From Escherichia coli (lineage in GTDB: Bacteria; Pseudomonadota; Gammaproteobacteria; Enterobacterales; Enterobacteriaceae): DNA of 64,000 nt. The DNA lies in NCBI RefSeq assembly GCF_003334315.1, contig NZ_QOWR01000014.1. One strand, 5' to 3'. The position numbers and the translations under genes are program-made. The notes beneath the pieces are model-generated. The model ran no database searches. It had not been told where the DNA came from and worked only from the letters and a program-made list of their open reading frames with translations. Of the stretch, positions 56,108 to 56,290 are shown piece after piece (position 1 is the stretch's first letter; the number at the start of each line of letters is the position of its first letter).

Positions 56108-56290
56108 CCGCATCCGGTATGTAACGCCTGATGCGACGCTGACGCGTCTTATCTGGCCTACACGCTGCGATTTTGTAGGCCGGATAAGCAAAGCGCATCC
56201 GGCATTCAACGCCTGATGCGACGCTGGCGCGTCTTATCAGGCCTACACGCTGCGATTTTGTAGGCCGGATAAGCAAAGCGCATCCGGCAC
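56108..56290. repeat. REP/BIME cluster (two near-identical ~85-bp units) inside the araBAD operon, between araA and araD
   Basis: Tandem units gcatccgg...aacgcctgatgcgacgctg.cgcgtcttatc.ggcctacacgctgcgattttgtaggccggataagcaaagc repeated twice. Confidence 0.92.

Follow-up and report, generated by a model that had tools for sequence, protein, structure and literature searches.

A two-unit BIME-2-type REP array between araA and araD of Escherichia coli, and the stem-loops found at the same junction across the Enterobacteriaceae

REP Elements between Cotranscribed Genes

REP/BIME elements have been known since 1984, and in the malE-malF case of Newbury et al. from 1987 the intercistronic REP hairpins reportedly guard the upstream segment of the message from 3'-to-5' decay and raise the ratio of upstream to downstream expression. 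As in the array described here, the hairpins of malE-malF lie between the cistrons of a sugar-utilization operon; the operon and the REP arrangement are different, and the effect is experimental there, whereas for ara it is one that we infer. What we regard as the best experimental model for the stabilizer-attenuator mechanism proposed below, by analogy, is REP325, the model BIME-2 located between yjdM and yjdN and the source of naRNA4. Deletion of REP325 changes the yjdM/yjdN mRNA ratio from 35.3 to 1.02, with log2 fold changes of -1.74 for yjdM and +3.36 for yjdN, and this effect is partly Rho-dependent (10.64898/2026.03.23.713779). The same source reports a median log upstream/downstream ratio of 0.96 for tandem gene pairs separated by REPs, against -0.09 for control pairs.

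The array between araA and araD is like REP325 in consisting of tandem, alternating Y and Z2 units between two cotranscribed genes; the T-type units of the two arrays are identical at 35 of 36 positions, and the Rfam family RF02564 recognizes one ara unit above its gathering score. In REP325 the period is 100 nt with 5.8 copies, the Y unit has a long apex and the linkers are longer; in ara the period is 85 nt with 2.1 copies, the apex of the Y-like unit is short and the linkers measure 13 and 6 nt. The function of REP325 has been measured, whereas for the ara array, of which we establish the anatomy, predicted stability, cotranscription, family membership, polymorphism and cross-species hairpin conservation, function is argued by analogy. 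The BIME-1 elements (also RIP or RIB) share with ara the inverted REP pairs whose GTAG/CTAC feet face each other, but they are single-copy, combine Y with Z1 units and contain a long, conserved L linker with an IHF site; the ara array, in contrast, is tandem, contains a long Z2 unit of the T-type and has a head-to-head linker of 13 nt.

The REP/BIME identity of the sequences at the araA–araD junction is already in the literature: oligonucleotides with the partial BIMEs at araD-A of strain MG1655 are substrates of TnpA-REP, which cuts them at CT sites in the iREP and the linker and recombines them in vitro (Ton-Hoang et al., PMC3333891), and six REP sequences have been described 5' of araD in O157 (Crozier et al., PMC8489885). 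The window analyzed here, by which we mean the whole 64-kb stretch of E. coli DNA, almost certainly carries the two-unit allele of this known locus, which holds one to three units depending on the strain.

Anatomy and Family Membership of the Array

The araBAD genes form one operon driven from the araBAD promoter. In the window, araB (52890–54590) lies upstream of araA, araC (51673–52602, minus strand) is divergent and polB is found at 57073–59424, each scoring above the curated NCBIfam cut-off. The coding sequence of araA (L-arabinose isomerase; 54601–56103, plus strand; NCBIfam NF002795, 897.9 bits with a cut-off of 622) ends with a TAA stop codon at 56101–56103, and that of araD (L-ribulose-5-phosphate 4-epimerase; 56303–56998, plus strand; NCBIfam TIGR00760, 449 bits with a cut-off of 389.1) is preceded by a Shine-Dalgarno motif, AAGGAG (56292–56297, plus strand), which we read from the sequence 5 nt before the ATG. 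The spacer between the two genes measures 199 nt and is mostly filled by a tandem array at 56109–56289 (Tandem Repeats Finder; period 85, 2.1 copies, 94% matches, no indels, score 327), one of two arrays that the program reported in the whole 64-kb window. The first-pass annotation had placed two near-identical units between araA and araD at 56108–56290, and both statements hold: the coordinates are correct to within 1 nt, and the two copies of the 85-nt repeat (56109–56193 and 56194–56278) are identical at 80 of 85 positions (94%).

We found no sigma-70-like site in the region 55600–57200, a scan of the spacer returned no terminator-like site, and a hairpin (AAACCAGGC...GCCTGGTTT) followed by a T-run occurs after araD, at 57029–57061 (plus strand; the scanner lists the same palindrome on the minus strand); the array is therefore cotranscribed and internal to the operon. 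The hairpin and T-run likely represent the end of the araBAD transcription unit. An internal araD promoter within the array was rejected for want of any sigma-70-like site in the region searched, and an intrinsic terminator, which would show a GC-rich hairpin directly followed by a U-run, was rejected as well, the REPs of the spacer being followed by ACGCTG, TTCAAC or CGAAGG. An open reading frame of 73 amino acids with a TTG start (56206–56427, minus strand) overlaps the array; it consists of repeat sequence and antisense araD and was disregarded.

Within each 85-nt unit, a Z2-type REP of 36 nt and a Y-like REP of 30 nt in inverted orientation are separated by a 13-nt linker, and a linker of 6 nt follows. 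Its first description as a palindromic unit of 85–90 bp was thus imprecise, as the unit contains two different REP palindromes in opposite orientation together with two linkers; the similarity of its two REPs nevertheless lets the whole unit also fold into a single, larger and imperfect palindrome with 15-nt arms that are 93% complementary. We name the palindromes according to the Y-l-Z2 order of PMC4550694: the T-type REP is Z2, and the G-type REP, which combines the Y stem (GCCGGAT/ATCCGGC) with a shortened apex, is a variant of Y.

The individual elements, all on the plus strand, can be followed from the araA stop codon to the ribosome-binding site of araD. The series opens 3 nt past the stop codon with a relic, the 3' half of a Y-like REP (GCCGCATCCGGTA; 56107–56119), which corresponds to the beginning of the repeat unit and lines up with AGCGCATCCGGCA of the complete ones; the sole hairpin available to this relic is a weak alternative pairing with the arm of the next REP (-13.4 kcal/mol, z = -2.0). 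The first Z2-type REP (GCCTGATGCGACGCTGACGCGTCTTATCTGGCCTAC; 56126–56161) carries its CTAC foot at the 3' end, differs from its copy in the second unit by two mismatches and folds into a hairpin of -17.1 kcal/mol (z = -5.3). It is joined by a 13-nt head-to-head linker (ACGCTGCGATTTT; 56162–56174, read from the sequence) to the first Y-like REP (GTAGGCCGGATAAGCAAAGCGCATCCGGCA; 56175–56204), an exact pattern match with a short apex and a GTAG foot at the 5' end, whose hairpin reaches -14.3 kcal/mol (z = -3.5). The tail-to-tail linker TTCAAC (6 nt; 56205–56210, likewise read directly) lacks 6 nt when aligned with the longer "l" linker of naRNA4, and leads into the second Z2-type REP (GCCTGATGCGACGCTGGCGCGTCTTATCAGGCCTAC; 56211–56246), which is the one compared with REP325 above and the most stable of the four (-21.7 kcal/mol, z = -5.2). 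The T-type REPs at both positions share the sequence form GCCTGATGCGACGCTGRCGCGTCTTATCWGGCCTAC. A second head-to-head linker with the same reading as the first (56247–56259) is followed by the second Y-like REP (56260–56289), again an exact match with a hairpin of -14.3 kcal/mol, which ends 2 nt before the araD Shine-Dalgarno motif and is the member of the array that is conserved in position across species.

On the coding-strand RNA, the four full REP hairpins range from -14.3 to -21.7 kcal/mol (z from -3.5 to -5.3), with no shuffled sequence as stable, and the RNA of the whole spacer reaches -95.7 kcal/mol compared with -73.0 +/- 4.3 kcal/mol for its shuffles (z = -5.3). The first-pass annotation had stated that a lack of stable hairpins on folding would speak against it; folding gave hairpins of -14 to -22 kcal/mol. 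As adjacent REPs are inverted and similar to each other, pairings between REPs compete with the individual hairpins.

Both palindromes fit the published REP consensus, GCC(G/T)GATGCG...CTTATC(C/A)GGCCTAC (PMC12306157, PMC3333891), and the GTAG/CTAC foot is present in all four units; none of 100 shuffled sequences matched either REP type, which excludes chance. The units show the further properties by which REPs are recognized, namely an imperfect, hairpin-forming palindrome of about 30–40 nt (here 30 or 36 nt) and an extragenic, dispersed and multicopy distribution: the four lie between the araA stop and the araD start, the window holds nine matches to REP feet where 0.04 would be expected, at three loci (11309–11461, 50738–50779 and the araA–araD junction), and the repeat part of our query has 4–37 matching places in each of 5,426 complete E. 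coli genomes. The Y and Z2 units alternate in orientation as in a BIME-2. We assign the array to BIME-2 or an atypical BIME rather than to BIME-1 because of its tandem copies (2.1) and its short linkers (13 and 6 nt), which leave no room for the long L linker with its IHF site. The Rfam model of naRNA4 (RF02564), covering Y, linker and Z2, matches at 56178–56243 (plus strand) with 60.2 bits, barely exceeding its gathering score of 59.5 (E = 3.9e-08 for the whole window), and the other registers of the array score 31.3 and 17.5 bits. We are nearly certain that the array is a BIME-2-type cluster, in which four REPs and a relic half-REP form two 85-nt units in tandem. The REP/BIME identity within a single araBAD transcription unit, as it had been proposed at first sight, is confirmed by the REP consensus and foot, the naRNA4 score, the literature on the locus and the lack of promoter- or terminator-like sites inside the spacer.

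Unit Number in E. coli and Structure at the Junction across Species

The corresponding spacer of MG1655 has the same location, the same flanks and the same two REP types, but measures 284 rather than 199 nt and contains three units: units 1 and 2 of the window are identical to units 1 and 3 of MG1655, and the middle unit, which carries the variant CCTACGCG, is missing from the window. To compare unit number across strains, a check proposed by the first-pass annotation, we used the joined flanks as a query and sampled the ranking of matches evenly, which gave 59 genomes and one engineered strain that lacks araA. One to three units were found: 22 of the 59 genomes have a spacer of 284 nt with three units, 14 one of 199 nt with two units and nine one of 114 nt with a single unit, and in a further 14 the spacer of 168 nt combines one unit with an unrelated, GC-rich palindrome that resembles boxC. 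Exactly the window's two-unit allele (100% identity) is carried by 26 complete genomes. One of these is K-12 GM4792, with which the window shares 100% identity in the local 1 kb, but the window is not K-12: over 30,758 bases it has 156 mismatches to GM4792 (99.5% identity), its araC is intact, and starting at 63612 it carries an IS1 that is missing from K-12 at this position.

The main rival to a regulatory reading of the array is that it represents a neutral or selfish passenger, a non-autonomous REP/BIME element in a tolerated spacer that has no selected effect on ara expression; we hold this to be possible but doubtful, and attach the same tentative weight to the idea that such a passenger would grow and shrink through TnpA-REP, slippage or unequal recombination. 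The range of spacer lengths among the 59 genomes fits this reading, and so do three further observations: strains whose flanks are 100% identical to those of the window have spacers of 114, 199 or 284 nt; two K-12 derivatives, GM4792 with two units and MG1655 with three, differ by one unit, the shorter spacer of GM4792 reflecting either a recent loss or a collapse in assembly; and O157 carries the two unit variants in reversed order relative to the window. Because copy number and unit order vary among strains, we conclude that the array is recombinationally active, which fits near-perfect direct repeats of 80 nt. The recombination of the araD-A BIME by TnpA-REP in vitro (PMC3333891) also agrees with a passenger, as does the predicted accessibility of the araD Shine-Dalgarno motif, which is equal for one to three units.

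What stands against a mere passenger is the structure of the same junction in other species. A degenerate nucleotide pattern covering codons 1–13 of araD found 77 loci in species-representative genomes, 74 of them with araA directly upstream. In these 74 enterobacterial species the spacer varies from 47 to 284 nt and contains a strong stem-loop in every case, the shortest spacers (47 nt) being essentially a hairpin alone; the stem-loop has thus been lost in none of the 74 species, nor in any of the sampled E. coli genomes. The minimum free energy of the spacers has a median of -0.46 kcal/mol per nt, with 95% of them at or below -0.37, and a median z of -3.8, with z below -2 in 59 of the 74. 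The araA–araD spacers are far more structured than 110 control spacers of 45–300 nt between same-strand open reading frames of the same loci, for which the median is -0.25 kcal/mol per nt and the median z -1.8, with 13% at or below -0.37; the Mann-Whitney p value of this comparison (1e-23) is inflated, as neither the species nor the control spacers are independent samples.

The elements that supply these stem-loops are unrelated. REPs or BIME-like pairs occupy the spacer in 37 of the 74 species, boxC-like palindromes in 13 (three of which also have a REP) and a plain GC-rich hairpin in 16; in the other 11, Leclercia adecarboxylata among them, a GC hairpin with a subsequent T-run immediately precedes the araD Shine-Dalgarno motif. 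The GC-rich spacer palindromes that we presume to belong to boxC, a family name given here as our assumption, form very stable hairpins in the same spacer, both in the 168-nt allele of E. coli and in Klebsiella, Raoultella, Kluyvera and Phytobacter, but are of unrelated sequence (CCCCTCRCCC...GGGGTGAGGGG) and do not contain the GTAG foot. Among the REPs, the position next to araD is shared most widely: as in the window, a short REP of the G-type stops 10–21 nt short of the araD start codon in 32 further species from many genera, including Citrobacter, Kluyvera, Salmonella arizonae, Escherichia albertii, Lelliottia, Buttiauxella, Kosakonia and others. The 7-bp stem of this REP is 96.6% paired over 25 distinct sequences, with changes on both sides in three of its pairs, and its pairing exceeds that of all or nearly all shuffles and of all slid registers, for sequences that are related and in species that each homogenize their own REPs. 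The shared position in many genera and the compensatory changes in the stem likewise argue against a passenger.

The modest new point of our analysis is that the junction keeps a strong stem-loop across the Enterobacteriaceae, whatever element supplies it. That unrelated elements provide a strong hairpin in 74 species argues that structure, and not sequence, matters at this junction, and the pattern, as read from the genomes, favors selection for structure; alternatively, the site could simply be permissive, with palindromic elements inserting there by preference or displacing one another.

Proposed Function and Competing Explanations

By analogy, we consider it on balance probable that the BIME-2 array acts as a cotranscribed element that stabilizes the araB-araA message and attenuates that of araD. 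A stabilizer and attenuator setting the ratio of AraB and AraA to AraD would be the most likely function of the array and a plausible one for araBAD, on the grounds of the analogy with REP325, the genome-wide upstream bias of gene pairs separated by REPs and the hairpin kept in 74 species. Transcribed as part of the araBAD mRNA, the array would fold into its four hairpins of -14 to -22 kcal/mol, which would block 3'-to-5' exonucleases so that the araB-araA segments outlive the araD segment; the same hairpins may slow or partly terminate RNA polymerase, in part via Rho, so that fewer transcripts reach araD. The net effect would be an excess of AraB/AraA message over AraD message. A weak hint comes from O157 Sakai, where microarray fold changes of 19.98 for araB, 8.94 for araA and 3.58 for araD are consistent with a step-down from araB through araA to araD. 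We found no literature on the effect of the array on araBAD, be it RNA-seq coverage, mRNA segments, half-life or the ratio of AraA to AraD protein.

The number of units may in addition serve as a heritable dial for fine-tuning, which would shift by recombination or slippage between the near-identical units. TnpA-REP may assist in this, as it cuts and recombines the araD-A BIME in vitro. More tentatively still, and in our estimate rather doubtful, the stem-loop would be an ancient and selected feature of araBAD that keeps AraB/AraA above AraD, for which unrelated elements are interchangeable and of which the unit number in E. coli is a mutable dial.

Several points count against the stabilizer-attenuator model. 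The loss of araD renders cells sensitive to arabinose, and a strong attenuation of araD would therefore be costly. The variation from one to three units even between identical flanks, and between MG1655 with three and GM4792 with two, suggests that dosage is only weakly constrained, and in some E. coli lineages part of the array has been replaced by the boxC-like element. The effects of REPs also depend on context, and some REPs do not stabilize reporters (preprint 10.64898/2026.03.23.713779).

A role at the level of DNA, in which the array would be a BIME-2 bound by gyrase (and by Pol I or HU) that manages supercoiling or domain structure at a strongly inducible operon, appears improbable to us. 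It would agree with the BIME-2 architecture of the array, and binding and cleavage of BIME-2 by DNA gyrase are described in the literature at the level of the family; the much larger REP325, however, has no measurable role in chromosome compaction (10.64898/2026.03.23.713779), and the terminator-like hairpins and boxC-like palindromes that occupy the junction in other species share with the array a hairpin or RNA structure, but not the sequence of a gyrase site.

Even less likely, in our assessment, is an action on translation, either by stalling of ribosomes at the araA stop codon or by control of araD initiation through the REP that abuts the Shine-Dalgarno motif. The placement of the relic half-REP 3 nt past the stop codon and of the last REP 2 nt before the Shine-Dalgarno motif would suit such a role, and REPs located less than 16 nt from a stop codon down-regulate translation according to Liang, Rudd and Deutscher (2015), as quoted in PMC12306157. 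The first complete REP stem, however, begins at 56126, 22 nt after the TAA and hence beyond the 15-nt rule in the form in which that account conveys it, and the relic can form only its weak hairpin, which competes with the REP of -17.1 kcal/mol. At the araD end, the accessibility of the Shine-Dalgarno motif and the AUG is moderate to high and independent of unit number: the Shine-Dalgarno motif is predicted in silico to be unpaired with a probability of 0.53, 0.53 and 0.47 for one, two and three units, respectively, and we accordingly rejected an effect of copy number on its accessibility.

Finally, processing of the units into naRNA-like small RNAs that bind HU and organize the nucleoid, for which the Rfam match just over the gathering score and the binding of HU by naRNA4 (PMC4550694) could be cited, is extremely unlikely, as the match merely reflects common REP sequence, the nucleoid compaction by REP325/naRNA4 was not reproduced (10.64898/2026.03.23.713779) and transcription of the array requires arabinose.

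The araBAD operon is a workhorse of molecular biology; the feature described here is itself ordinary, and its locus has already served as a biochemical substrate. The spacer is easily mis-sized in short-read assemblies and in engineered ara deletions. With alleles of one to three units, and others with a boxC-like palindrome, occurring naturally in otherwise near-identical backgrounds, the junction offers a test bed for the debated role of REPs as stabilizers, attenuators or passengers.

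Variation of the araA–araD spacer among E. coli strains

Even between K-12 derivatives the number of BIME units differs: the araA–araD spacer measures 199 nt in GM4792 (loci L001 and L009) and 284 nt in MG1655 (locus L002), a difference of exactly one 85-nt unit, which means either that the laboratory lineage lost a unit recently or that a repeat collapsed during assembly. The order of the units varies as well. The O157:H7 strain 8368 carries two units, as does the window (L006:311-509, in the coordinates of that ara locus, compared with window 56104-56302), and its linked variants CTGACG/ATCTGG and CTGGCG/ATCAGG occur in reversed order relative to the window; this reversal suggests unit shuffling or gene conversion.

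A further allele was found in 14 of the 59 sampled E. coli genomes, which are without the second BIME unit and have a GC-rich boxC-like palindrome, CCCCCTCGCCCCTTTGGGGAGAGGGCCGGGGTGAGGGG, placed between the leftover REP and araD. In E. coli 2014C-3061, with a spacer of 168 nt, the stretch that shows this replacement is L005:398-478 of the ara locus (compared with window 56205-56302). Where the palindrome replaces the second unit, the context of the araD Shine-Dalgarno sequence changes from CGAAGGAG to CTCAGGAG.

Genomic setting of the window

The window is E. coli, yet not K-12. Over 30,758 bases aligned with K-12 GM4792 it differs by 156 substitutions and is free of gaps, and its best matches among complete genomes reach only 99.8% identity and have additional insertions. 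Similarity to K-12 ends at 63610. An IS1 end fills 63612-64000, where the minus-strand translation scores 127.4 bits against the IS1 family transposase model NF033558, and its presence accounts for the thousands of plasmid matches to the window. The araC gene of GM4792 is annotated with an internal stop.

Other REP clusters and RNA elements

Two further REP loci, both flanked by convergent ORFs, are present in the window. A cluster of three GTAG-footed REPs at 11309-11505, with two minus-strand Rfam naRNA4 matches (78.4 and 77.8 bits), is flanked by ORFs at 11092-11289 (+) and 11505-11894 (−), and a single classical BIME-2 unit at 50731-50797, in which a 14-nt linker joins a long-apex Y unit to an inverted Z2 unit, is flanked by thiQ (49990-50709, +) and yabI (50823-51587, −).

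Above the Rfam gathering thresholds we also found STnc40 (11909-11978, −), the leucine operon leader (39216-39365, +), SgrS (45345-45571, −), and the TPP riboswitch upstream of thiB (47328-47427, +), all of which are expected in this chromosomal region. A strong match at 17625-17714 (−), near the ftsA–ftsZ junction as judged from its position relative to K-12, is to PssrA (RF02797; 105.5 bits, gathering score 69); this family is the "Plasmid-encoded Shigella sRNA A", a plasmid sRNA family, and the match here is chromosomal.

Terminator-like spacers in other genera

Terminator-like araA–araD spacers were found in ara loci of Leclercia and Silvania (L019, L051, L052, L062, and L069) and of Atlantibacter and others (L044, L047, L055, and L056). 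These spacers of 51–60 nt consist of an 8-bp GC hairpin, followed by 6–7 T and then the araD Shine-Dalgarno sequence, and the hairpin with its T-run looks like an intrinsic terminator within the ara operon. If it is a real intrinsic terminator, expression of araD would hinge on read-through.
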